Source: Candidatus Binatia bacterium (GTDB lineage: Bacteria > Desulfobacterota > Binatia > Bin18). From it: 64,000 nt of DNA. The DNA is taken from NCBI GenBank assembly GCA_963664395.2, contig OY761159.2, positions 3,648,001 to 3,712,000 on the forward strand, read 5' to 3'. A program made the translations under genes and the position numbers. Under the pieces are notes generated by a model. It saw only the letters and a program-made list of their open reading frames with translations. It was not told the origin of the DNA and did no database searches. The stretch's first letter is position 1. Each line of letters starts with the position of its first letter. Below, piece by piece: positions 2,770 to 59,341 of this stretch.

Positions 2770-5700
2770 ATGCCTCGTATTTTCGACAATATCGAACAGC
2801 ATCTCCAGCCTGTATTAGCCGAGACCCTGAAGCTTGCCGACCGGGCCGACTTCTGTGTCGGATATTTCAACTTGCGCGGCTGGCGGTTGATCGATTCATA
2901 TGTGGAACAATGGGACGGGGGCGAGGGGCATTGCTGCCGTGTCCTTGTCGGAATGCAGCGCTTGCCACACGAGGAATTTAGGATAGCCAGAAGTCTGTCC
3001 GCCGGCCAATCGGCACTCGACAATCAGACGGCGCTTCGGCTCAAAAAAAGACTCGCCGAAGAATTTCGAGAACAACTGACACTCGGTGCGCCGAGTAATG
3101 AAGACGAGACGGGCCTGCGCAGGTTGGCGAAGCAGATCAAGGCAAAGAAGGTTGTCGTCAAGCTGTTCCTCAGACATCCGCTCCATGCCAAGCTCTACCT
3201 CCTGTTTCGGCCCGACCCGATCAACCCGATCACCGGCTATCTGGGAAGCAGCAACCTTACCCAAGCAGGGCTCTCTCATCAGGGTGAACTCAATATTGAC
3301 GTGCTCGACCATGACGCCAGTCAGAAGCTCGCCACATGGTTTGAAGATCGATGGAATGACCGCTGGTGCGTCGATATATCGAAAGAGCTTGTTGAGATTA
3401 TTGAAGAGAGTTGGGCACGTGAAGAACTGATTCCGCCCCACCACATCTACATCAAAATCGCCTACCATTTATCGCAGGAAGCACGGGCTGGGTTGACCGA
3501 ATTTCGCATCCCAAAGGACTTTGGGAATAAGCTGCTCGACTTCCAGACAGCGGCAGTAAAAATCGCGGCGCATCATCTGAACCGGCGGGGAGGCGTTATC
3601 ATCGGTGATGTTGTCGGACTGGGCAAAACGCTCATGGCGACCGCCCTGGCGCGCGTGTTCGAGGACGACCACGGACTCGAAACCTTAATCATTTGCCCCA
3701 AGAACCTTGTTCCAATGTGGGAGGATTATCGTGAGCAGTACCGAATGCGTGCTCGCGTCCTGTCGATCACCCGCGCGATCAGAGAGCTGCCCGACATGCG
3801 TCGTTACCGCTTGGTGCTGATCGACGAGAGTCATAACCTGAGGAACCGGGAAGGTAAGCGATACCGGGCCATTCAGGAATACATTCAGGAAAACGACAGC
3901 AAATGTATCCTGCTGTCGGCAACGCCCTATAACAAGACGTATTTGGATCTGTCCAGCCAACTCCGTCTGTTCGTGTCCGAGGATGAAGACTTGGGGATCC
4001 GCCCGGAACGCTTGCTGAGAGAGATGGGCGAGACGGGGTTCGTGCGCCAGCATCAAGCGCCGGTTCGGTCCCTGGCCGCGTTCGAGAAATCCGAGCATGC
4101 AGAGGACTGGCACGAACTCATGCGTCTTTATCTCGTCCGCCGGACCCGTGGCTTCATCCAGAACAACTATGCTACCACCGACCCGGCCACCGGGCGTCAA
4201 TACTTGACGTTTGAAGACGGCAGAAAATCCTATTTCCCGACACGGGTCCCAAAGACGGTACAGTTTAATATCGACGGCCAATATGGCCAGTTGTTCGCGG
4301 ACGATGTGGTTGAGGCCATAAATCGTTTGGAACTGCCACGCTATGGGCTCGGCAACTACAGCTCTGATGTTCCGCGTACACCGCCGACACAAGCCGAAGC
4401 CACAATCTTGAACGACCTGTCGCGCGCCGGTAAGCGTCTGATGGGTTTCTGCCGGACTAATCTGTTCAAACGTCTGGAGAGTAGCGGTCATGCCTTTCTG
4501 CTGTCAGTCGAACGCCACATTCTCAGAAACTTCATCTTTCTGCACGCGCTGGAGAATGATCTGTCGCTCCCAATCGGAACGACGGACGCTGGGCTGCTGG
4601 ACCCGCAGTCGTTTGACGAAGATGCCGAGCAGGCCGTTGGCGACATCTTCGATACGGAGGACGACGAAGACAACGGCGAACCCGGAGGAACGACTTCGCT
4701 GAGGACCGAAGAGGATTTTCGCAACCGCGCTGCCGCAGTCTACGCACTGTTTACCGATAAATACAGGAAGCGGTTTCGCTGGCTGGCCTCGCATCACTTT
4801 AAGGCAGACCTGGGCAAAGCCCTCAGGGCCGATGCTGAGATTCTCCGCAATCTCCTGGTCACGTTCGGCGAGTGGCGAGCCGTGGACGATACGAAGTTGG
4901 ACGCACTGCAAGAAGTGCTTGTGAATCGACACCAGGAATACAAAGTACTGGTCTTCACGCAATTCGCCGACACGGTGCGCTATCTTGAAAACGAGTTGAA
5001 GGCGCGTGGAGTGTCGGGCATGGCTGCGGTAACAGGAGACACGCCGAACCTGACGGAACTAGTCTGGCGGTTCAGCCCGAGGAGCAACGAGAAGGACACC
5101 CCCGCCGAAGAAGAACTGCGCGTGCTGATCGCGACCGATGTGCTGAGCGAGGGGCAGAATTTGCAAGACTGCGCCGTTGTGGTGAACTACGACCTGCCGT
5201 GGGCCATTATCCGTCTGATTCAACGTGCTGGCCGTGTGGACCGTATCGGCCAGCAGGCGGACGCCATCCTGTGTTACTCCTTTCTTCCGGCCGAAGGGAT
5301 TGAGCGTCTGATTCGGCTTCGCGCCCGCGTGCGGACACGCCTTCAAGAGAACGCCGAGGTGGTGGGAACGGACGAGGCATTCTTCGAGGACGAGGACAAA
5401 CAGACCGTGCTTGACCTGTATAACGAAAAGGCCGGTATTCTCGACAGTGACGACGAGATGGACATCGATCTGTCCTCGTATGCGTATCAAATCTGGCGGA
5501 ACGCGACGCAGGCTGACCCGTCGCTCAGAAAGAAAATCGAAGATATGCCTTCTGTTGTCCATTCATCGAAAGCCCATCAACCACAGCCGCAGCGACCGGC
5601 AGGAGCGCTTGTCTATACGCGCACCGCCCAGGGGTACGACGCATTGGCCTGGATAAACCGCGATGCTAAGAGCGTGACTGAGAGCCAATTCGAGATTCTA

Positions 5701-48017: not shown

Positions 48018-48776
48018 CTACCCTGATTGAAACGTCATTTCGACGACGGCCTCTCCTTTTTCAGGCAGAGAGATCCGCTGTGAGCGCACGCCAAACCGTT
48101 CATGCCAGGCTTCAATGGTATACTCGCCCGGCGGAACGTTCCGGAGCAAGAATGATCCATCTGTGCCGCTCAAGGCAAAATAAGGATGGTCGAACACGCC
48201 AAGATAACTCCGCATCCAGCCGTGGATGTCACACTTGACTTCAATGCCGACCTCCTCGGCAGCAACCGTCACGTTCCGCGACGTGCCTTTGAGTCCCAGA
48301 CTGAAGTTCCAGTGCGAAGAATTGTGCGGCAGTCCATGGACATTATGGGCCATGGGGTCGCTGTTACGATAGCGAAGCTGTTGATCGACCTGAAGCGCCA
48401 TAATACGCGGCAGAAAGACACAGCCTTTTTGGTCATTCGCAACCGGTTTTTCAGGAACGGCAAAAATACGCTCGCCCAGACCGTCTTTGATATACACCAG
48501 GGCATTTTGTAGTCTGCCGTTTGTCACCAACACATCGCCGGCGTAGACCGTCCCTTCGTGTTGGGCGGCGCATTCCGACCAGCCGCCAAGCTGAAGCACG
48601 CTTTGCTCCGGCATTGAACCGGCGAAATGGATGCTCCCGGAAATAGTGCCCACTGTGGACAGGTCGAGCGGGGTGGGTTGGCGGGGCGGCTTTGGTGGGG
48701 TGGAGCTGTTACAGGCTATGAGAAGAGAGAGAAGGAATCCAATTGAAATCAGTTGGACAGATTGGGAGAAATGCAT
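48018..48776 (-). CDS. Lipoprotein with cupredoxin-like and carboxypeptidase-regulatory-like domains
   Basis: Lipobox LIAC; DQKGC.F.P, NSD...HNVH, CDIHGWM. Confidence 0.8.
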   Translation of the reverse strand: MHFSQSVQLISIGFLLSLLIACNSSTPPKPPRQPTPLDLSTVGTISGSIHFAGSMPEQSVLQLGGWSECAAQHEGTVYAGDVLVTNGRLQNALVYIKDGLGERIFAVPEKPVANDQKGCVFLPRIMALQVDQQLRYRNSDPMAHNVHGLPHNSSHWNFSLGLKGTSRNVTVAAEEVGIEVKCDIHGWMRSYLGVFDHPYFALSGTDGSFLLRNVPPGEYTIEAWHERFGVRSQRISLPEKGEAVVEMTFQSG

Positions 48777-48785
48777 ATCATTTTG

Positions 48786-48824
48786 CTCCCTCGCCCCTGG
48801 CGGGAGAGGGCTGGGGTGAGGGGG
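48786..48824. repeat. REP-like palindromic repeat (family A)
   Basis: CTCCCTCGCCCC-TGGC-GGGAGAGGGCTGGGGTGAGGGGG. Confidence 0.75.
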
Positions 48825-48845
48825 TTCTTCTGACCTTCGCTCCTG

Positions 48846-49820
48846 CTATTTGGCTTGGACTGCTGCCAGATTGACACAGTTGATGGGCGGCTCGCCGGCG
48901 CGCAGGCGGTTGACATTGGCGGCCAGGCCGCGCGCGATGTCGTTATACGATAAATCGGTGACGCCGGCGATATGGGGCGTGGCAATCACAGTGTGCACAT
49001 TATTTTGGAACAGCGGATCAGTCGGGTCAGTCGGCTCGTCCCAAAAAACGTCCAGCCCTGCACCCGCAATCTCCTCGCGCTCCAGGGCCGCAACCAGGGC
49101 GTCATGATCGATGACAGGCCCGCGCCCGACGTTAATGAGATATGCCTTGTTCTTCATACTGGAGAGCGCCTGTGCATCAATCAGCCCCCGCGTGTGTGGC
49201 GTGACAGGCAGGGCCAGGACAACGAAGTCGGCCTCTGCCAAGACGTAACCCAGGTCTTGCGGCCCACCAAGAAAATCAAATCCAAACTCTTCTTTTATGT
49301 GCTCGGCTGGGTGCTGCTTCAGGCCGATCAGACGCACGCCAAAGTGGCGTAAGCGGCTGGCCAGCTCAGTGCCGATACTCCCGACTCCGATAATGGCGAC
49401 CGTCTTATCCAGCAGCCCTTTGCCCATAGGAGCCCCAAAGATATTTTTTTGTACGTTCTCGGCTGCCTGGGGAAATTTTCGGGCCAGGGCCAGCATGAGA
49501 AAAATGGCGTGCTCTGAGACTGAGGCCGCGTTTCCTGCCCCTTCGTGTCCCGGAACATTGGCAACATAGATGCCCTGTTCGGTCGCAACCGGAATATCCA
49601 CGCCTTCGAGCCCGACGCCGAACTGATGGATCATGCTTGCGGAAGTGGCTCGAATAATGTCCGCATCCACGCGGTGCATGGTTGGAACAACTACATCTGC
49701 GTCGCGTGTCGCGTCCAGCACCTCTTCTGCCGGGCAGGCGATAATGGTGTCATCCGGCAGATGCTTCCGAAGCATCTCGGAACAGTGGGGGAAATGGGTG
49801 GAACACAGAACAATTTTCAT
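48846..49820 (-). CDS. D-isomer-specific 2-hydroxyacid dehydrogenase
   Basis: GVGSIG, INVGRG, GAGLDVF..EP, TPHIAG. Confidence 0.92.
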   Translation of the reverse strand: MKIVLCSTHFPHCSEMLRKHLPDDTIIACPAEEVLDATRDADVVVPTMHRVDADIIRATSASMIHQFGVGLEGVDIPVATEQGIYVANVPGHEGAGNAASVSEHAIFLMLALARKFPQAAENVQKNIFGAPMGKGLLDKTVAIIGVGSIGTELASRLRHFGVRLIGLKQHPAEHIKEEFGFDFLGGPQDLGYVLAEADFVVLALPVTPHTRGLIDAQALSSMKNKAYLINVGRGPVIDHDALVAALEREEIAGAGLDVFWDEPTDPTDPLFQNNVHTVIATPHIAGVTDLSYNDIARGLAANVNRLRAGEPPINCVNLAAVQAK

Positions 49821-50884: not shown

Positions 50885-51898
50885 CTAAAACAATCCTAGT
50901 ACTGCCGCGCTAATTTTTTGCGGGTTGGGCAAATAGTGGTCTTCCAACGGTGGGCTGAATGGCACCGGGGTGTGTGGAGCACACACTATTTTTATGGGCG
51001 CGTTCAGGTAATCAAACCCCTTGTCCGCGACCATAGCCGCAATATCGGTTGCCACGTTACAGCGCGGGTGCGATTCATCGACGATCACCAGTCGGCCCGT
51101 CTTCTCAACCGATGTCAGCACCGCCTCCTCGTCAAAGGGCGAGAGAGTCCGAGGATCAATAACCTCAACGCTTTTGCCCTGCTTTTCCAGCTCCGCGGCC
51201 GCGGCCAGGGAGTGATGCACCATCTTGCCCATAGCCACGATAGTGACATCATCGCCGGCGCGCTTAATGTCTGCTTTGCCGAACGGAATGGTGTAGTCTT
51301 CTTCTGGAACGACTCCCTTCATTGCGCCAAACGTGATGTCCTCAAAGAAAATAACCAGATCGTCATCCCGGATCGCCGAAATCAAGAGTCCTTTGGCGTC
51401 ATACGGCGTCGAGGGGACGACCGTCTTGAGCCCTGGGATATGGGTAAAGAGTGAGTGCAACACCTGAGAGTGTTGGGCCGCGGCGCGGTAGCCGCCTCCG
51501 CAGATGGTCCGAATAACCAGCGGGACTTTCGCTTTGCCGCCAAACATATAGCGGAGTTTTGCGCCCTGGTTCAGGAGTTGGTCAAAACACACGCCCATAA
51601 AACCGACGAACATCATCTCGGCAATAGGCCGCAGGCCAGTGACCGCGGCGCCCACCGCCGCGCCAATAAAACCGGACTCGCTGATGGGTGTATCGATAAT
51701 GCGCTCCCGACCAAATTCCTGGACCAAGCCTTTTGTCACGCCCAGGACTCCGCCCCAGGCTTCACCACCTTCGAGGTGATCGACATCGGCCCCGCCCGCA
51801 ACGTCCTCTCCCATTAAGATCACTTTCGGGTCGCGTCGCATTTCCTGACGCATGGCTTCATTCAGCGCTTCACCAAAATTCAACTCTCGCTCTGCCAT
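50885..51898 (-). CDS. acoB: Acetoin dehydrogenase E1 beta subunit
   Basis: DTPISE, AAAQHSQ, PFSP.LE. Confidence 0.88.
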   Translation of the reverse strand: MAERELNFGEALNEAMRQEMRRDPKVILMGEDVAGGADVDHLEGGEAWGGVLGVTKGLVQEFGRERIIDTPISESGFIGAAVGAAVTGLRPIAEMMFVGFMGVCFDQLLNQGAKLRYMFGGKAKVPLVIRTICGGGYRAAAQHSQVLHSLFTHIPGLKTVVPSTPYDAKGLLISAIRDDDLVIFFEDITFGAMKGVVPEEDYTIPFGKADIKRAGDDVTIVAMGKMVHHSLAAAAELEKQGKSVEVIDPRTLSPFDEEAVLTSVEKTGRLVIVDESHPRCNVATDIAAMVADKGFDYLNAPIKIVCAPHTPVPFSPPLEDHYLPNPQKISAAVLGLF

Positions 51899-51969
51899 AA
51901 TTTTTCTCCGCAAGGGGATTAGGGGTGGGTTTCTATCTGCCCCAATCCCTAATGCCCAGTTCCCAGCCC

Positions 51970-52938
51970 CTAGTAATTCACATACACGTCAGTGAAGGTT
52001 TCCTGGACTTCGGGAAAGGGGCTGTCTTCCGCGAATGTGACCGCTCCATCAATTGCTGCATTGACCCGTTCATCGATGCCCCCAAGCTCGTCTTCGGACA
52101 CCAGGCCACGAGCCAGGACGGCCTTTTTGAAGAGCTTGATCGGATCGAGTTCGGTGCGGTATTTGTCGTTTTCCGCGGCAATTTTATAGGTCTGCGCATC
52201 GCCTTCAAAGTGGCCGAAGTGACGATAGGTCTTACACTCCACCAGGCTCGGCCCTTGTCCGGCCCGGGCGCGCGCAATCGCCTCATGCGCCGATTCATAC
52301 ACGGCAGCCAGGTCGTTCCCGTCTATGGTCACGCCCGGCATATTATACGCTGCGGCGCGGTCGGCGATATTCTCGACGCTGCAATGATAATGCGACGGCG
52401 TGGCCTCGGCATAGCCGTTATTCTCGGCCACAAAAATGACCGGCAGCTTCCAGATTGCGGCCAGGTTGAGGCTCTCGTGCAAGGTGCCCTGTTCCGACGC
52501 CCCGTCACCAAAGAAGCAGATGGTCACCTGGTCAGTCCCGTTGGTTTTTGCCGTCAGGCCGGACCCACAGGCCAGCGGCGGGCCGCCTCCGACGATACCG
52601 TTGGCCCCCAACATGCCTTTGTCCATATCGGCAATATGCATGGAGCCACCTTTGCCCTTGCAAATCCCCGTGGCCTTGCCGAACAGCTCAGCCATCATGC
52701 CCCGCACGTCCACCCCTTTTGCAATACAGTGGCCATGTCCGCGATGGGTCGAGGTCATATAGTCAGCGTCCGTGAGATGGGCACAAATCCCGACAGCTAT
52801 GGCTTCTTCCCCGGCATAGAGATGCACAAAGCCCGGGATTTTCCCCTTCCCGAACTCAGTACTGACCCTGGTTTCAAACACACGGATGAGCTGCATACGC
52901 TCATAGACCCACAGGAGCTTGTCTTTGGGAATATCCAT
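51970..52938 (-). CDS. acoA: Acetoin dehydrogenase E1 alpha subunit (TPP-dependent)
   Basis: IPGFVHLYAGEEA, STHRGHGH, GDGA...N, GHFEGD; ATG 52938 with GGAGG RBS. Confidence 0.9.
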   Translation of the reverse strand: MDIPKDKLLWVYERMQLIRVFETRVSTEFGKGKIPGFVHLYAGEEAIAVGICAHLTDADYMTSTHRGHGHCIAKGVDVRGMMAELFGKATGICKGKGGSMHIADMDKGMLGANGIVGGGPPLACGSGLTAKTNGTDQVTICFFGDGASEQGTLHESLNLAAIWKLPVIFVAENNGYAEATPSHYHCSVENIADRAAAYNMPGVTIDGNDLAAVYESAHEAIARARAGQGPSLVECKTYRHFGHFEGDAQTYKIAAENDKYRTELDPIKLFKKAVLARGLVSEDELGGIDERVNAAIDGAVTFAEDSPFPEVQETFTDVYVNY

Positions 52939-53033
52939 ACCGCCCTCCTTTTCCAGTAATTCTGTACCGGCTTCATAACACGAAACGCGGACAGGGGAAA
53001 CAGAATGGGCGGATGAGGGGCGAGAAGTGTCCA

Positions 53034-53192
53034 TCCCCTCTTGGGAGGGGTGGCGCGTAGCGCCGGGGCGGGTTGTCCCATCCTTAGGGAGTGCGGGCAT
53101 CCTGCCCGCATTTATACCTGTCGGATTGCGTGGGGATGGACGTAAGCCGGGGACCCCCTCACCCTGGCCCTCTCCCCCACAGAGGCGAGGGG
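53034..53192. repeat. Cluster of three different REP-like palindromes (families B, C, A)
   Basis: 53034-53079, 53087-53110 and 53154-53192 each have relatives elsewhere in the window. Confidence 0.75.
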
Positions 53193-53275
53193 ATAAGATG
53201 GGGGCGAGGCGAGGCTGGGAGAAGCGTTGTTCTAGCGCGAGGTGGTGAGATGTGATGAATGGGAGAGGGTCTACC

Positions 53276-53434
53276 ATGGGAAAGATACGCCTCAGCGAAA
53301 GCGACGTTTGCGCCAAGTTCATCACGCCGGCCCTGCACCAAGCCGGGTGGGACGAGGCCACGCAAATTCGCCGCGAGGTCAGCTTCTTGAGGGTGAGGGT
53401 CGGTGTTGACAACACCTATCTGAGCCACCTATAG
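53276..53434 (+). pseudogene. hsdR: 5' fragment of a type I restriction subunit (EcoAI/EcoEI-like HsdR)
   Basis: LSESDVCAKFITPALHQAGWD...QIRREVSF matches the HsdR N-terminus; similarity ends after about 37 codons. Confidence 0.75.
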
Positions 53435-53435
53435 C
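53406..53435 (+). promoter_or_regulatory. sigma70-like promoter TTGACA-N18-TATAGC
   Basis: Just upstream of the three-gene operon. Confidence 0.45.
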
Positions 53436-53444
53436 CTGAGATGT

Positions 53445-54230
53445 ATGATTAAAGGGATACAAATAGGCGAGACGGCTTATGTCATGACGGCATTGTCCAT
53501 ACATTTCAGGACGACAAGTGCGTTCTTCCGAGAAAAAGATGCTGTCCTCGCTGACCATTCACCGAAACCATTTCCTCACTTCTCCCGGGGTGATCGTGAC
53601 TTTAATCTTATCGACATGGAAAAGCGTACGGTCGTAAGGTTCGAACCAAATCGTGCTGTAGCCAGATCGGAAGGCCAAGACAGTCTTGACCGGTTTCAAA
53701 CAGTAGTAGATGTACTGCGCGAGATTGTGAATCGATTCCAGATACAGGACATCTTTCAAATTCTTCTACACGATATACGGTGTGTTCCTACTAAGAATAT
53801 TAGGAAGGCCCGCGATTTCTTCTGTGAGCAGTTCTGCACGGAAAAGGGAATGTCGATTCTTGACGACGACATGACCCGTGACTACTCAACAACCGTTGAG
53901 CGAAAATGGCTTTTGAACAATAAGATGCAGGAGCAGAAGGTAAAAAGGGAATGTGAAGTTGAAGCGAGTGGAGTAGTTCTGGTTGGTCCGGCCACAAGGG
54001 ATGAGATCGCTGACAAGAGATGGATTGAATTCCACGATGCCGCGGATAACAATCTCTACAAGGCTCCAAATCTCTCGCCATCGGCAGGGGTGCTTGCCAA
54101 TATGGAGATGTACGCTCAGCCATACGAGGGAGGTTCGCAGAAATTTATGATGGTTGAAACATTGGATGCGTTCTATAGATGGGCTGTGGGACAGACAGAC
54201 TCTGTCTGGAAACGAATTGTTACTTCGTAA
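53445..54230 (+). CDS. Hypothetical protein (261 aa; alpha/beta, loosely TIGR04255-like)
   Basis: Long ORF in an AT-richer segment; family resemblance is only a pattern impression. Confidence 0.7.
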   Translation: MIKGIQIGETAYVMTALSIHFRTTSAFFREKDAVLADHSPKPFPHFSRGDRDFNLIDMEKRTVVRFEPNRAVARSEGQDSLDRFQTVVDVLREIVNRFQIQDIFQILLHDIRCVPTKNIRKARDFFCEQFCTEKGMSILDDDMTRDYSTTVERKWLLNNKMQEQKVKRECEVEASGVVLVGPATRDEIADKRWIEFHDAADNNLYKAPNLSPSAGVLANMEMYAQPYEGGSQKFMMVETLDAFYRWAVGQTDSVWKRIVTS

Positions 54231-54241
54231 GGAAGGCGAAC

Positions 54242-54760
54242 ATGGCTGCAGGAATGAATACAGACAAGGCTGCGGGAATGACCACCACTAACGGATGGAC
54301 CTCCTCCTCCTCTAGTGGATCGATACCGGTTGCTCTCGAAAATTTGGACAGTAAAACGTTAGACGACCCAACCGTTTCCTCAGGCTTCCAGGGCAACGGC
54401 TCTCATGAATATATGAAGGAGCAACTTGATGCCCTCAGCATGATATCGATATCACGAAAGGGAAGCCAGGAAACGGACGATATTATTTCTATTGGCGCAG
54501 TGGATGAGCCTCTGAGTCCGATGGATTTGCTATGGAGAGTCCGCGAAGATCGTATTGCAGAGATACTACTGCGGGCTGAGACGATTGAGGTGTTGGAAGC
54601 GGTTGGACAGAGGGATTTGGCTGTCATCCATTCGTCATATCAGCATCTTCATGCTTTTGCAGATCTCGTTTCAGAAGATCTGATTAGTGTTGAAGATGGC
54701 CACCCCGTTCTTACCCCTCTCGTAGAGGAACATATCCGCCTCCTGAGCGACAAGATTTAG
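54242..54760 (+). CDS. Hypothetical protein (172 aa; disordered Ser/Thr/acidic N-terminus, winged-helix-like C-terminus)
   Basis: AAGGAAGG RBS; L...DLI...G...LT.L wing pattern. Confidence 0.7.
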   Translation: MAAGMNTDKAAGMTTTNGWTSSSSSGSIPVALENLDSKTLDDPTVSSGFQGNGSHEYMKEQLDALSMISISRKGSQETDDIISIGAVDEPLSPMDLLWRVREDRIAEILLRAETIEVLEAVGQRDLAVIHSSYQHLHAFADLVSEDLISVEDGHPVLTPLVEEHIRLLSDKI

Positions 54761-54763
54761 CAG

Positions 54764-55297
54764 GTGGCTTTGAATTCCAGCCTGAAAACTGCACTTGTGC
54801 AGGCCCAAAAACGCTTCCGAGAGGTTCAATTCTACGTCCTTATCTGGGGGCCGGGGAGTACATCCGACACACCACAGCGTGAAAAGCGTGATCGTATAAG
54901 GAAAGACCTAGAACAACTGCTTGGACCAGAAAATGTCTGGTACAGCGAAGATATTTCCGAAGATAACGATCCTGAGTTGGACAGACTCCGAGAGTTGGGA
55001 GATTTGGGCTCAGAGTATGTACAGGTTCAGGCTGCTGATGCGGTAGTCCTGATACCAGAATCTCCTGGTTCTATTGCTGAGGCCGCTCTTTATCAAGACG
55101 AGTTGCGTGGCAAGACCATTGTATTTACTACGAAGCGGCAGGGCACTTCGTTTGCCAGTAACACTTACTTCATGCACAAGGTTGAGACGGTAACGGAGCG
55201 AGAATGGAGCAGCTGCCAGCGCGTTCGTCGCCTGGCAAAAAGGTTCATTAATGATCTCCGTTTTCTGAAGGCGAAGCGGCTTAGCCTGATGAACTGA
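54764..55297 (+). CDS. Nucleoside-deoxyribosyltransferase-fold protein resembling retron NDT effectors
   Basis: VLIWGPG, YSED, E......ADAVVLIPESPGSIAE motif. Confidence 0.7.
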   Translation: MALNSSLKTALVQAQKRFREVQFYVLIWGPGSTSDTPQREKRDRIRKDLEQLLGPENVWYSEDISEDNDPELDRLRELGDLGSEYVQVQAADAVVLIPESPGSIAEAALYQDELRGKTIVFTTKRQGTSFASNTYFMHKVETVTEREWSSCQRVRRLAKRFINDLRFLKAKRLSLMN

Positions 55298-55319
55298 CCA
55301 ACATGGGCTAGACATTCTC

Positions 55320-55724
55320 TCAGACCATTAGCGCTATGCCTTCCGCCTGTGCCGCTACGCTGAGTTTGCGGTCAAGGGTGGCAAGCGGCCGTTGTTGCCG
55401 GACCGCTAATTCCAGGTACAGCGCATCATACGCGCTCAAGCCGTGGGTCCTGGCCAGCCGGAGGAGGGAGGCATTGTCCGGTGCGTGGTCCAAGTGGATG
55501 CCCAGCGCGTCAATAGCCTGCACTGCGGCCGCAGTTTCCTCTTGTGTTAAGCGTCCCCTGCACTCTGCAATGACCAGGACGTTACGGACTTCCACCCACC
55601 ACAGCGCCGGAGCGATGCCGCCAATTTCCGCCACCTGCTCCAGGGCAGCACCGGCTTGGGCCGATTGCTCGTCCCTGAGCACCCAGGCCATGGTGACGGA
55701 ACTATCCAGGACGGGGGCCTTCAA
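55320..55724 (-). CDS. vapC: VapC/PIN-domain toxin
   Basis: VLDSSVTMAW, EVRN, SAYDALYLELA, LATLD; TTG start overlapping the antitoxin stop (TTGA). Confidence 0.92.
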   Translation of the reverse strand: MKAPVLDSSVTMAWVLRDEQSAQAGAALEQVAEIGGIAPALWWVEVRNVLVIAECRGRLTQEETAAAVQAIDALGIHLDHAPDNASLLRLARTHGLSAYDALYLELAVRQQRPLATLDRKLSVAAQAEGIALMV

Positions 55725-55963
55725 CGCCGACCTTCGTTGCGCATTTGAAGAATGTCCTCGGTTGTCGCCCACCCAATGCGCTTGCGCAGAGCGCGGAGGG
55801 TCGTGGCCGCGGCAACAGCGACTTCACGGTCGGGCGCTTCCGGTGGTATCAACCGGGCCACCGCGCGCCCACGTTTGGTGATGATGATGGTCTCTCCGCG
55901 CGCGACCTCGTCAAGCAATGCGGAAAGGTGGGTTTTCGCCTCGAACGTGCCGACTTCTCTCAT
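55721..55963 (-). CDS. Phd/YefM-family antitoxin
   Basis: VGTFEAKTHLSALLDEVARGETIIITKRGRAVARL. Confidence 0.93.
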   Translation of the reverse strand: MREVGTFEAKTHLSALLDEVARGETIIITKRGRAVARLIPPEAPDREVAVAAATTLRALRKRIGWATTEDILQMRNEGRR

Positions 55964-56143
55964 AATCCCTCTTGGAATAATAAGCTAGTCTATTATCTGG
56001 TTAGATAAAGGCCCATGTCAAGCCGTAGTTCGCAGGAAAAGCACCGAAACACCTGCAAAAAAGTATCGCTACTCCTGTAAGTTCGGATCTACCGAGTTGC
56101 AAAACTTCTGATTATTTATAGTCTGGGCGTGGAATGGAACTAG

Positions 56144-57869
56144 ATGATGCCTTCTCTCCTCTACGAACCTGATGAGCGCCCGCCGTATGCCTTTGCCTTT
56201 GGACTGAGCTTTCAGCGGGCCATGTTAATGGGCCCCAGCCTGGCGCTCATACCGACTATTATCATGCGGGCCGCGAATCAGGACGAGACTTATCTGTCTT
56301 GGACAATCTTCGCCCTGCTCATGGTTACTGGCGCGATCACGATAGTGCAGACGCTTCGTATCGGGCGCTTCGGCTCGGGGTATGTGCTCGTGATGGGGTC
56401 CGCTAGTGCTTTCGTCGGCGTGTGTATCCCCGCGCTCGTTGAGGGCGGCCCGTCTTTGCTGGCCAGCTTGATTATCGTTGCCGCCGTGTTTCAGTTTGTG
56501 CTGGCTGCCCGTCTCTCCTTGTTGCGGCGCTTCATCACGCCGATGGTGGCTGGAACGATCCTCACCCTGATTCCCGTTTCTGTCATGCCGGCGATCTTTC
56601 GGATGCTGACCAATGTGCCGGAGGGGACGCCGGAGGCCGCGGCCCCGACGAGTGCGGCGGTTACCTTTGCCACGGCTGTGGCGCCTCGCGCTACGCGCCT
56701 CAGAGACGTGGCGACCATGGGCGCCGCTCATCGGGGTTGTGGCCGGCTGCATGGTGGGCGTGTGGTTCGGCCTGTATGACGTAGACCGGATCCTTGCCGC
56801 CCCCTGGATCGGCTTACCGACCAACGCCTGGCCGGGAGTAGACCTGACGTTTGGCCCCGCTTTCTGATCTCTCCTGCCCGGATTCCTATTCGTGATTCTG
56901 GTCGGGACGACGGGAACCCTTAGCCATGCCGTTGCCGTGCAGCGGGTCTCGTGGCGCAAGCGACGGGCGACCGATCTCCGCTCGGTCCAGGGCGCGGTGG
57001 CCGCAGTTGGCTTGGGCAATCTGCTGTGCGGCCTCGCTGGGACGATCCCGTGCGGCACCCGCCCGTCAAGCGCGCCGCTTGTGGAGCTGACCGGCGTGGC
57101 GGCGCGTCGTGTCGGGGTGTGCATCGGCATCATCTTCCTTGCCTTGGCTTTTTTACCCAAGCTGATGGCCGTGTTGATGGCCATTCCGAGCCCGGTGGCG
57201 GCTGCCTATCTCACGGTCCTGGTCAGCCTCATCTTTGTCCAGGGCATGCAGCTCGTCCTCCAGGGTGGAAACGACTACCGCAAAACCCTGGTGGTCGGCG
57301 TGTCGTTTTGGGTCGGGGTGGGCTTCCAGTATCAGGCCATTTTCCCCGACTACCTGAGCGGGATGTGGGCGATCCTGCTCAGCAACGGTATCACCGCAGG
57401 CGGCCTTATGGTCGTCGGCTTGACCTTGTTCCTGGAGCTGACCGGCCCCCGCCGCCGCCGTCTGGACATGGAGCTGGCGGTTGCGGGCCTGCCGAAGCTG
57501 GAGGAGTTCTTATGTGCCCTTGCCGCCCGCCTGGGGTGGAGCGCGGAGGCGACCCAGCGCCTGTGCTTGATCGGCGAGGAAGCGCTGACGAGTCTGGGGC
57601 AACAGATGGACGCCAAGGCGACGGATCGTGCGAAGCCGCGTTTGCGTGTACTGGCCCGTCAGGACGGCGCTGCCGTGGAGTTGGAGTTTATAGCGGCGAT
57701 TGGTGAGGCTAACCTTGAAGACCACATCGCGCTGCTCGGGGACCAAGTGGAGACGCCCAACGAGCGCGAACTCTCGCTGCGTTTGCTGCGGCACTTCGCC
57801 TCGTCCGTGCGCCACCAACAGTACCACAACATTGATATTGTAAGCGTGCGCGTTGACGGCTCGGTGTAA
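56144..57869 (+). pseudogene. Xanthine/uracil (NCS2) permease fused to a C-terminal HATPase/anti-sigma-like domain; disrupted
   Basis: YEPDERP start, RRFITPMVAGT, ELTGVAARRVG; one extra C at about 56684 and an in-frame TGA at 56865-56867. Confidence 0.8.
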
Positions 57870-57955
57870 ACCCCGAGAGAGGGGTCAGCCGTCAGGCAGC
57901 GGTTCTCGCCGTATGGCGGGGAGAGGAAAGCGATGTTGAGGGAGGGGGTTGTTGC

Positions 57956-59341
57956 TTATTCGTCCTCGTCCGGCAGCCGGTAGGCCGTGCCGTCAATGAG
58001 GCGTTTAGTGTCGTAGTTCCAGCGGGTCATCCAGTGTTCGACCACGTGATAGGCCGGACACTGGCCCTTATCAATTTCCTCCCGCAGTCGCTCAAGATAG
58101 ATGGTCTCATTTTCTCCGGCCTCATTGCAGTCGTTCTGTCGCTCTAACCCTTCCCAGGCGATCGTAACCAGCTCTTTGGCCAGATCGAGCAGGCGTATGC
58201 CCTGCACTCGTGCGCCCAGGGCTTGGCGATGGGCTTGATGATAGGCTTCGATGCGCTCCTCCCAGCTCCACTTTTTCACCAGGTCCCAGGCGGCCAACAG
58301 TGGGTCGTTATCAAAAAAGATGCCTTTGGTGAGGGCCGGCACGGCCAGCATGTATTCAAACGGCTGGTTATCAAAGCAACGGATCTCTAGGTATTTTTTA
58401 ATCCGCACTTCCGGAAAGAGGGTCGTCAGGTGGATGCCCCAGTCTTCCATGCTGGCGCGTTCCCCTTCGTACCCCTCCTCCAGGAATTGGCGAAAGGACA
58501 TATGGGTCATATTAATCCACTGGCCTTTGCGCACAATAAAATACATGGGAACATTCAGCGCGTATTCCGCATAGTCTTCAAACCCAGGAGAGTCGGCAAA
58601 AGCGAATGGCAGCAAACCACACCGCCGTTTGTCCGTATCGGTCCAGACGTGGCCCCGCATGGTCATAAAACCGTTCAGCCTCCCATCTGAGATCGGAGAG
58701 TTGGCAAACATGGCGGACAGTATGGGTACGAGTCCCATACTCGTCTTCAGCTTCATCATGGCGTCAGTTTCGTCGCTAAAGTCGAAATTGACCTGAATGG
58801 AAGCGGTTTGCTTCATCATGCGCTGCCCCAGCGTCCCGACCTTTTCCATATACGGGCCCATGATCGAATAGCGCGTTTTAGGAATCCACTGGATGTCATC
58901 CAGTGAGCTGACCGGCTGTACTCCCAAGTTGACGAAATCAATGTCCAATTCGTCCGCAATGGGCAGCAGGTGCTTGAGATGGCGCCGGAGTTCTTTGTCC
59001 GCACAATGGATGGTCTCACACTGTTCGCCGGAGAGTTCGAGCTGAGCGCCAGGTTCAAGCGCGATATTGGCTCGCTCGCCTTGGAGGGCGATGATGCGAC
59101 CGGCTTCTTCTTGGGGCTCCCATTCCAGGGAGTCGGCCAGGCGGCTCAGGATATGCTCAATGCCGCGCCGTCCGGAGTAGCGCGCTGCCCGGCCACTCCG
59201 GCGTGATACGCCTAGCAGTTCGTACTCTGTGCCAATGCGCCAATCCTCTCGGGGCTTTGCGGCTTGAAAGAAGTATTCGATGAGTTGGGCATGGTCTTCA
59301 ATAACAAGATCCGTGTCTGGTCCTTCGATATACTGCGACAT
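57956..59341 (-). CDS. gshA: Glutamate--cysteine ligase (plant/alphaproteobacterial GCS2 type)
   Basis: IGTEYE, LEPGAQLELSG, MMKQTASIQVNFDF, HLTTLFPEVR. Confidence 0.92.
   Translation of the reverse strand: MSQYIEGPDTDLVIEDHAQLIEYFFQAAKPREDWRIGTEYELLGVSRRSGRAARYSGRRGIEHILSRLADSLEWEPQEEAGRIIALQGERANIALEPGAQLELSGEQCETIHCADKELRRHLKHLLPIADELDIDFVNLGVQPVSSLDDIQWIPKTRYSIMGPYMEKVGTLGQRMMKQTASIQVNFDFSDETDAMMKLKTSMGLVPILSAMFANSPISDGRLNGFMTMRGHVWTDTDKRRCGLLPFAFADSPGFEDYAEYALNVPMYFIVRKGQWINMTHMSFRQFLEEGYEGERASMEDWGIHLTTLFPEVRIKKYLEIRCFDNQPFEYMLAVPALTKGIFFDNDPLLAAWDLVKKWSWEERIEAYHQAHRQALGARVQGIRLLDLAKELVTIAWEGLERQNDCNEAGENETIYLERLREEIDKGQCPAYHVVEHWMTRWNYDTKRLIDGTAYRLPDEDE

Follow-up and report, generated by a model that had tools for sequence, protein, structure and literature searches.

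We analyzed a cassette of three co-oriented genes at positions 53445-55297 of a 64,000-nucleotide stretch of DNA from a Candidatus Binatia bacterium (contig OY761159.2 of assembly GCA_963664395.2, positions 3,648,001 to 3,712,000 of the forward strand), which we refer to as the window. The third gene encodes a protein akin to the nucleoside deoxyribosyltransferase (NDT)-like effectors of type II retrons, and no reverse transcriptase (RT) gene lies at the locus. An earlier reading of the letters alone, hereafter the original prediction, had proposed a new defense or tripartite toxin system in which the NDT-like toxin is controlled by proteins. The three genes, as read from the open reading frames (ORFs) of the window, are as follows:

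53445-54230, + strand: gene 1, ATG start, 261 amino acids (aa)
54242-54760, + strand: gene 2, ATG start, 172 aa
54764-55297, + strand: gene 3, GTG start, 177 aa

The lengths and the spacing of the three genes, 11 bp between genes 1 and 2 and 3 bp between genes 2 and 3, agree with the original prediction. The longer gene 2 frame of the ORF list (54179-54760) overlaps gene 1, and the ATG at 54242 is preceded by a good AAGGAAGG box. Gene 1 could alternatively start at the ATG at 53484, which would give 248 aa and is the start used by its homologue P0014, while the homologues of gene 3 start at the position matching its GTG in the family alignment.

Each of the three genes has homologues elsewhere, and contigs from RNA libraries lie on parts of all three; therefore, they are not chance ORFs. 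The RNA-library contigs derive from metatranscriptomes of two studies and match with 0 mismatches. One covers 54008-54189, a part of gene 1, and two others (54499-54821 and 54704-54908) span the junction between genes 2 and 3. The interval 53104-53935 has no such contigs, which is no evidence of silence. Overall, these contigs are compatible with expression of the cassette.

Gene 3 resembles the catalytic part of type II retron effectors

Gene 3 carries the motifs that had been noted in it, namely WGPG at residues 28-31, SED at 61-63 and an ESPGSxxE-type motif in ADAVVLIPESPGSIAE at 91-106. Profile searches bore out the kinship with the NDT effectors of type II retrons that had been proposed from such motifs. 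The PADLOC model NDT_II-A matched residues 17-125 of gene 3 over profile positions 18-120 of 272 (E 1.4e-7), and the NCBIfam model NF038232, "retron St85 family effector", matched over positions 12-111 of 277 (E 9.2e-8). The NDT families of Pfam gave no match to gene 3, and the Pfam SLOG family LDcluster4 stayed below threshold (E 0.068, 13.2 bits compared with a gathering score of 26.3). When a profile of the 13 members of the gene 3 family was searched against the Protein Data Bank (PDB), the sole match was the effector of retron Ec86 (7v9x_C, E 4.3e-4), in which "PESPGSFTE" aligns with the "PESPGSiaE" of the gene 3 family. A deposited Ec86 variant, 8qbl_G, has Ala at the glutamate of the ESPGSxxE motif. 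Relatives of gene 3 numbered 12 in a word-indexed search, and an exhaustive search gave 19 representative clusters at E <= 1e-30.

The conserved residues of the family include the glutamates that are catalytic in retron effectors. E84, E99, S100 and E106 are invariant in 13/13 family members, and E84, E99 and E106 are invariant in all six sequences of an alignment enlarged by two paralogues and by a bona fide NDT_II-A protein. The available part of one preprint describes E106 of the Ec86 effector as catalytic and E65, S100, E106 and S133 as conserved (bioRxiv 10.1101/2023.08.16.553469); that of another gives F28/E85/E107 as the triad of RcaT-Sen2, with the E107Q exchange abolishing both toxicity and auto-ADP-ribosylation (bioRxiv 10.64898/2026.10.13.758329). 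E84 and E106 of gene 3 correspond to E85 and E107 of the Sen2 protein, and E106 corresponds to E106 of the Ec86 effector; no gene 3 residue was assigned to Phe28, the remaining member of the Sen2 triad. The C-terminal helical tail of about 50 aa has its own invariant residues (F130, Y135, E147, W148, C151 and R153 in all 13 members). Judged by these comparisons, gene 3 is a relative of RcaT that consists of the catalytic half alone, with the conserved tail in place of the DNA-binding half.

The AlphaFold model of gene 3 is a three-layer alpha/beta structure with a predicted local distance difference test (pLDDT) score of 73.9 and a predicted template modeling (pTM) score of 0.74. VIA-align placed it near a TIR domain (5uzb_A, Z 10.6), LOG (5wq3, Z 10.2), DNPH1 (8rps_B, Z 10.0, root mean square deviation 3.0, 123 aligned residues), PpnN (Z 9.9), the CMP N-glycosidase MilB (Z 9.9) and nucleoside 2-deoxyribosyltransferases (Z 8.7-8.8); the Ec86 effector chain was not among the top 50 rows of either VIA-align run. 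The predicted fold is thus of the TIR/SLOG/NDT class, with no choice among the three, a class that includes the NDT fold that had been expected.

The same comparison raises the possibility that gene 3 is a LOG/DNPH1/PpnN-like N-glycosidase in a non-toxic operon of nucleotide metabolism or signaling, with a housekeeping or regulatory role. LOG, DNPH1, PpnN and MilB fit the model as well as the TIR domain does, the weak LDcluster4 match points the same way, and in one of the metagenome loci described below (L007) the neighbors are metabolic genes. However, the distribution is unlike that of a housekeeping gene (the cassette in one genome out of 28 from the genus, the core family in just the host genome out of 401 from the phylum), the GC content is foreign in two unrelated hosts, the sequence relatives of gene 3 are retron effectors and not LOG or DNPH1, and the partner proteins lack metabolic domains. 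We therefore regard a metabolic operon as quite improbable.

The locus lacks a reverse transcriptase

The absence of an RT from the locus, on which the original prediction turned, held up. The host genome (G000) has three RT genes, which lie 0.48, 1.5 and 2.1 Mb from the cassette, so that the nearest is 0.48 Mb off and belongs to another system. The three comprise an RT-Toprim type I-C retron (E 1.9e-227), a retron RT that comes closest to types VIII/VII and has a DUF3800 neighbor of its own, and a DRT4 system; none is type II-A by best match, and all three are self-contained, each with its own effector. No Rfam family, and thus no Rfam retron RNA, matched in 51000-58000 at E <= 1, although an undescribed noncoding RNA (ncRNA) is possible there. 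The host RT loci L001-L003 lie on contig C1 of the host genome at 2171722-2172336, 3219567-3220112 and 1605405-1605821, and the genome is thus well stocked with RT-based defense away from the cassette.

These data bear on whether the cassette is a decayed type II retron that has lost its RT, its ncRNA and the DNA-binding half of its effector. Such decay would account for gene 3 matching only the N-terminal ~120 positions of effector models of ~272-279 positions, and what is possibly a truncated form of a true NDT_II-A protein (211 aa, E 1.8e-52) does occur in a relative from the same genus. Nevertheless, the 177-aa form with its conserved tail is found in 13/13 members, and nearly all of the 150 listed representatives of the wider family have a similar length; the two partner genes are conserved together with gene 3, and the flanks of the metagenome loci L007 and L008 hold no RT. 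Decay of a retron is thus a highly improbable origin of the cassette.

The cassette lies in a segment missing from related genomes

The surroundings of the cassette comprise the following features:

53252-53434, + strand: HsdR N-terminal remnant (context), a 60-aa ORF with HsdR-like sequence up to near 53386
53387-55316, no strand: inserted or variable segment, 1.93 kb of low-GC DNA with all three genes
53406-53435, + strand: promoter-like site, TTGACA, 18 nt, TATAGC; read in the sequence and weak
55320-55772, - strand: VapC (PIN), Pfam PIN E 3.4e-8
55721-55963, - strand: Phd/YefM antitoxin, Pfam PhdYeFM_antitox E 2e-12

The cassette has a GC content of 0.485, compared with 0.58 in the left flank and 0.597 in the right flank, and is thus more AT-rich than its flanks, as had been noted. 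When the DNA of 51000-58000 was searched against the 28 genomes of the genus, both flanks were matched widely, and the stretch 53387-55316 was matched solely in the window's own genome. Two sites without the cassette are informative. In the first genome (G002), a decayed hsdR remnant at the same site is followed by 148 bp and then by VapBC; in the second (G023), the acetoin-dehydrogenase gene is followed by 318 bp and then by VapBC. The Phd-VapC pair occurs free of the cassette in these two genomes and in G021, and it is a type II toxin-antitoxin system in its own right. Apart from short chance-like matches, the cassette ends showed neither direct nor inverted terminal repeats, and no integrase or transposase ORF is visible within 53387-55316 in the ORF list.

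The cassette was found at near identity in sequencing runs of nine studies. The core gene 3 family (E 3.6e-79) was found in the host genome alone among 401 phylum genomes, and any match at E <= 1e-5 in three of the 401, the other two being weak paralogues. Within the host family, a match at E <= 1e-3 was obtained in five of 55 genomes, in four of which it came from weak paralogues alone, and a pattern scan of genome contigs gave no gene 3 relative. Taken together, the composition and the empty sites suggest that the cassette is a mobile, low-GC islet that was acquired horizontally.

The location between a broken hsdR and a Phd-VapC module, as stated in the original prediction, is borne out by the Pfam matches to VapC and Phd listed above and, on the other side, by a match of the 60-aa upstream ORF to Pfam HSDR_N (E 0.022, positions 2-33 of 198). 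Several further loci in genomes of the genus, which we take as hsdR 5' ends, share 78-89% identity with the DNA at 53232-53386. Of the promoter that had been proposed, the TTGACA at 53406-53411 and a TATAGC 18 nt further on are present; the site is only a partial consensus match and was not among the results of a promoter consensus scan, which gave one site in the region, on the opposite strand.

At 51970-53415 on the - strand lies a 481-aa ORF similar to the E1-alpha subunit of acetoin/pyruvate dehydrogenase, with a long low-complexity N-terminal extension that runs through a repeat element; translation of this ORF probably begins well downstream of the listed start, around the segment MDIPKDKLLW. 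The repeat, at 53033-53074 with a similar stretch near 48749-48985, is short and GC-rich, and its translation reads like GEGQGEG/SPLP. DNA- and RNA-library contigs pile up on it with loose ends on both sides, reaching a depth of 444 in X5, which marks it as a dispersed repeat.

The three-gene arrangement recurs in metagenomes

A scan of metagenomes with gene 3 gave 10 loci, which represent about six lineages besides the window, since L006-L008 are near-identical, as are L009, L012 and L013. A gene-2-type ORF lies directly upstream of the gene 3 homologue in nine of the 10. Six of these were recognized by tblastn with the C-terminal part of gene 2 (E 8e-8 to 2.3e-6), one by a match at E 0.099, and two by position together with the family alignment of gene 2 (A4). 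A first gene, closely spaced to or overlapping gene 2, is present in all seven loci with a long enough contig (L004, L007, L008, L009, L010, L012 and L013). The arrangement of three genes that had been noticed in the window is thus conserved elsewhere.

In L007 and L008, the triad is flanked by a cyclase gene on one side and by a Dus gene on the other, and in L007 its GC content is 0.584, compared with 0.69 and 0.73 in the flanks; this is a second host in which the triad looks foreign. A different picture is seen in L011, where a cut-down gene 3 homologue of 113 aa (3242-3583) has no gene-2-type ORF and lies downstream of proteins of 453 aa and 308 aa without a Pfam match; this locus represents a copy in decay or else an arrangement of another kind.

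Gene 2 is a candidate regulator of gene 3

The N-terminal ~95 aa of gene 2 are rich in Ser, Thr, Asp and Gly and show little conservation. The ~80 aa at the C-terminus make up a conserved folded domain, with L109, R111, S132, L136, L142, V143 and G153 invariant in the family alignment and a pLDDT of 82-83 in the complex runs described below. A profile search with gene 2 matched only four proteins, and no Pfam family (searched with all six family members) and no NCBIfam, PADLOC or PHROG family was found. A PDB profile search returned designed repeat proteins only, and the ESM Atlas, queried with residues 90-172, returned nothing named. The winged-helix-like end that had been attributed to gene 2 is thus unsupported by the Pfam, PDB-profile and ESM Atlas searches. 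What did appear was a weak match of the C-terminus to the N-terminal extension of SNF2 and HsdR proteins encoded beside NDT paralogues (hhalign probability 30.7%, E 5e-4, 33 columns).

The complex prediction of gene 3 with residues 85-172 of gene 2 scored 0.41, compared with 0.01 for the best control, and was classed as "weak support". In the calibration of this procedure, 58 of 80 solved complexes and two of 110 mismatched pairs passed; the passes with a score of 0.60 or under comprised only seven of the 80 solved complexes and both of the mismatches. Between runs, the contacts agreed to at least 90%, and the pLDDT of the partner was at least 82. Gene 2 is a candidate for the protein that regulates gene 3 or acts as its antitoxin. 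Wider-family members with an N-terminal extension, which were considered as Rosetta-stone fusions of gene 2 and gene 3, proved not to be gene-2-like and were set aside.

The first position is filled by two dissimilar families

Only three homologues of gene 1 were found, and tblastn added a match in L004 to its C-terminal part (E 8.8e-9). It matched no family in Pfam, chaperone families included, nor in PADLOC, NCBIfam or PHROG; the ESM Atlas gave unnamed clusters only, and the AlphaFold model, built on an alignment of four rows, had a pLDDT of 35.5 and was unusable. Across the metagenome loci, the first gene falls into two families, one gene-1-like (L004) and the other a protein of 227-237 aa (L007, L008, L009, L010, L012 and L013). 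No similarity between gene 1 and the 227-237-aa protein was detectable by hhalign with either default or permissive settings (probability 0.06), which is not proof that they are unrelated.

The chaperone role that had been proposed for gene 1 thus found no support, either in the Pfam, NCBIfam and PADLOC searches or in the make-up of the first position. Because two families without detectable similarity fill that position, a swappable accessory or sensor fits better than a dedicated chaperone.

A simpler view would be that genes 2 and 3 are a plain addiction module, an antitoxin and a toxin that maintain selfish DNA and have no part in phage defense, with gene 1 as a passenger. The tight coupling of genes 2 and 3 at a spacing of 3 bp, the position of a small low-GC islet next to another toxin-antitoxin pair, the sporadic distribution and the lack of a single conserved family in the first position would all suit such a module. 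However, a first gene is present in every locus with sufficient contig reach, tightly spaced to or overlapping gene 2, which argues for a three-part unit, and the nearest characterized relatives of gene 3 are defense effectors. We consider a plain addiction module unlikely, though serious enough to be kept in mind.

Relatives of gene 3 occur beside restriction and helicase genes

The exhaustive profile search gave 307 representative clusters at E <= 1e-3, and nearly all of the 150 listed members have 160-210 aa. Of these 150, 83 were scanned, and most matched only the N-terminal part of NDT_II-A, and weakly. By reading of the sequences, P0084, P0088 and P0092 join the NDT-like domain to N-terminal paired CxxC motifs that are zinc-ribbon-like, and P0052 and P0118 join it to hydrophobic, membrane-anchor-like N-termini. 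The 211-aa protein with the strong NDT_II-A match (L018, 1465-2100, G010:C10) is short for its family and, by reading of the ORFs, lies between carboxymuconolactone-decarboxylase-like and glutathione S-transferase-like genes.

Paralogues in relatives of the host stand in loci of another kind. In L017 (G002:C1:4446569-4449901) and L015 (G004), the gene for a paralogue of 198 aa has on one side that for a type IIG restriction-methylase (PADLOC E 2e-124) and on the other that for an SNF2 helicase of the HmaA/BrxH/DrmD kind (E 1e-43). The helicase carries an extra N-terminal domain of ~100 aa; the paralogue is a possible undescribed accessory of a restriction/helicase defense locus. In L016 (G028:C294:1-2697), a 193-aa paralogue is followed by an overlapping HsdR gene (HSDR_N E 1.9e-40) with a like N-terminal extension, and a PIN-like ORF lies upstream. 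The paralogues match the gene 3 profile weakly (E 1e-9 to 1e-8) and are 20-25% identical to the core proteins. Their positions beside a restriction-methylase, an SNF2 helicase and HsdR indicate that short RcaT-like NDT proteins are used outside retrons in defense-type loci.

Could the cassette itself be an accessory module of restriction- or helicase-type defense, orphaned here by the destruction of its partner hsdR? In genomes of the host's family, the paralogues of 193-198 aa lie directly upstream of an SNF2 helicase or HsdR with the extra ~100-aa N-terminal domain, that domain is the one weakly matched by the C-terminus of gene 2, and the HsdR N-terminal remnant closely precedes the cassette in the same orientation. 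Nevertheless, the genome with the hsdR remnant at the same site (G002) has no cassette, so that the remnant is independent of it. In addition, L007 and L008 hold the full triad, and neither the 2.7 kb upstream of it nor the 6 kb downstream contain a restriction or helicase gene; the weak profile matches and low identity of the paralogues set them apart from the core family. Such an orphaned accessory is distinctly unlikely.

A broader proposal is that type II retron effectors belong, as a single branch, to a larger and undescribed family, with at least 307 clusters at 50% identity, of free-standing NDT proteins of the RcaT type that are controlled by proteins and not by an RT and its multicopy single-stranded DNA (msDNA). 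Gene 2 and an exchangeable sensor (gene 1 or its counterpart) would then replace the RT and DNA in the roles of antitoxin and of trigger detector, and related forms would be joined to restriction-helicase systems, zinc ribbons or membrane anchors. We put this forward tentatively, as a possibility that would sooner fail than hold.

A putative mechanism for the three-gene cassette

Overall, we give about an even chance to the reading that the cassette is a rare, mobile, RT-independent toxin or defense module, with gene 3 as the effector, gene 2 as its regulator and gene 1 as a swappable sensor or accessory. It would be a self-contained conflict module, either toxin-antitoxin-like or an anti-phage system of the abortive-infection type, that works without an RT. 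Gene 3, most likely a dimer, would cleave an N-glycosidic bond by means of the Glu84/Glu106 pair, and its target may be NAD+, hydrolyzed with transfer of ADP-ribose, or other nucleotides. Gene 2, which is translationally coupled to it, would hold gene 3 inactive through the C-terminal domain and so stand in for the RT-msDNA of retrons; the disordered N-terminus of gene 2 may confer lability or respond to a trigger. Gene 1 would serve as a sensor or specificity factor, a third component that can be exchanged and for which other lineages use an apparently unrelated protein.

Several observations weigh against this proposal. The matches of gene 3 to retron effectors are all weak, that to NF038232 reaching 32.1 bits compared with a cut-off of 100, and Foldseek of the gene 3 model against the PDB gave no match at E <= 1e-3. 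The predicted fold class includes non-toxic enzymes (LOG and DNPH1) and pure signaling domains, so that function is not assignable from the fold alone. Genes 1 and 2 lack a recognizable domain, which makes their proposed roles guesses, and the complex score of 0.41 falls in a range in which, by the calibration of the procedure, passes are wrong more often than they are right, except where the pairing is likely beforehand. The RNA-library contigs may derive from contaminating DNA, and they do not demonstrate a single transcript. The gene 3 family is very rare and thus offers few independent observations; it was not found in collections of phage, plasmid or viral contigs, and in L007 and L008 the triad lies among housekeeping and metabolic genes with no defense island.

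Comparison with known systems

Among named systems, the cassette has no counterpart that we could find. PADLOC-DB v2.0.0 gave no family for gene 1 or gene 2, nor for the counterparts of these two in L004, L005, L007 and L012, and gene 3 matched NDT_II-A only; the novelty that had been suggested for the locus is in line with this result. We found no description in the literature of an NDT triad that lacks an RT, although the supplementary tables of the discovery papers and of Mestre et al. 2020 might list such proteins. The effector is recognizable, and the three-gene architecture is not.

The small, adjacent and coupled genes (3 bp apart), with a partly disordered small protein encoded upstream of a putative enzyme toxin, resemble type II toxin-antitoxin systems. 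Toxin-antitoxin-chaperone systems have a dedicated SecB-like chaperone as their third gene, whereas gene 1 has no match to a chaperone family and the first gene is not one family. The three-layer alpha/beta fold predicted for gene 3 is that of NDT, DNPH1/RCL, MilB/BcmB, SLOG/LOG and TIR proteins (Z 8.7-10.6, with 118-148 residues aligned), and the glutamate-based N-glycosidase chemistry would be common to gene 3 and the NDT branch. Gene 3 differs from the NDT, SLOG and TIR enzymes in having no significant Pfam match (LDcluster4 at E 0.068 only) and in belonging to a mobile islet with partner genes.

A split between the enzyme and the DNA-binding part has precedents among retrons. According to the available part of Mestre et al. 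2020 (PMC7736814), type II-A2 has the NDT separate from the DNA-binding domain, and the type III phosphoribosyltransferase has a separate winged-helix protein; the retrons concerned (II-A2 and III-A1/A2) nevertheless come with an RT and an ncRNA. In the cassette, by contrast, the small partner precedes the enzyme, a winged helix is unsupported, and there is no RT.

The closest comparison is with retron type II-A, whose effectors (RcaT; Retron-Sen2/St85 and Retron-Eco1/Ec86) have the NDT-like domain, the PESPGSxxE motif and the two catalytic glutamates in common with gene 3. The type II-A effector carries a C-terminal DNA-binding domain in the same protein of ~270-310 aa, whereas gene 3 has 177 aa and no such domain. 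Type II-A systems have an adjacent RT and msr-msd; the cassette has no RT and no Rfam match, and two protein partners of unknown family instead. Gene 3, at 32.1 bits, also lies below the 100-bit cut-off of the curated NF038232.

So far, the type II retron effectors have been understood only as toxins that are restrained by an RT and its DNA product. A natural RcaT-type domain without its DNA-binding half, accompanied by two proteins, would show this effector to be a portable module. The targets of RcaT and the way in which it is switched on are listed as open in the available part of a preprint (bioRxiv 10.64898/2026.10.13.758329), and the cassette would provide a simpler, all-protein system in which to ask about both for RcaT-type proteins. 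Moreover, the members of the wider family that stand beside type IIG restriction-methylases, SNF2 helicases and HsdR suggest an unrecognized accessory layer in restriction-type defense. In both the cassette and the type II-A retrons, the enzyme is probably kept inactive by co-encoded partners; the cassette works like retron type II-A systems in this respect and is not a member of them.

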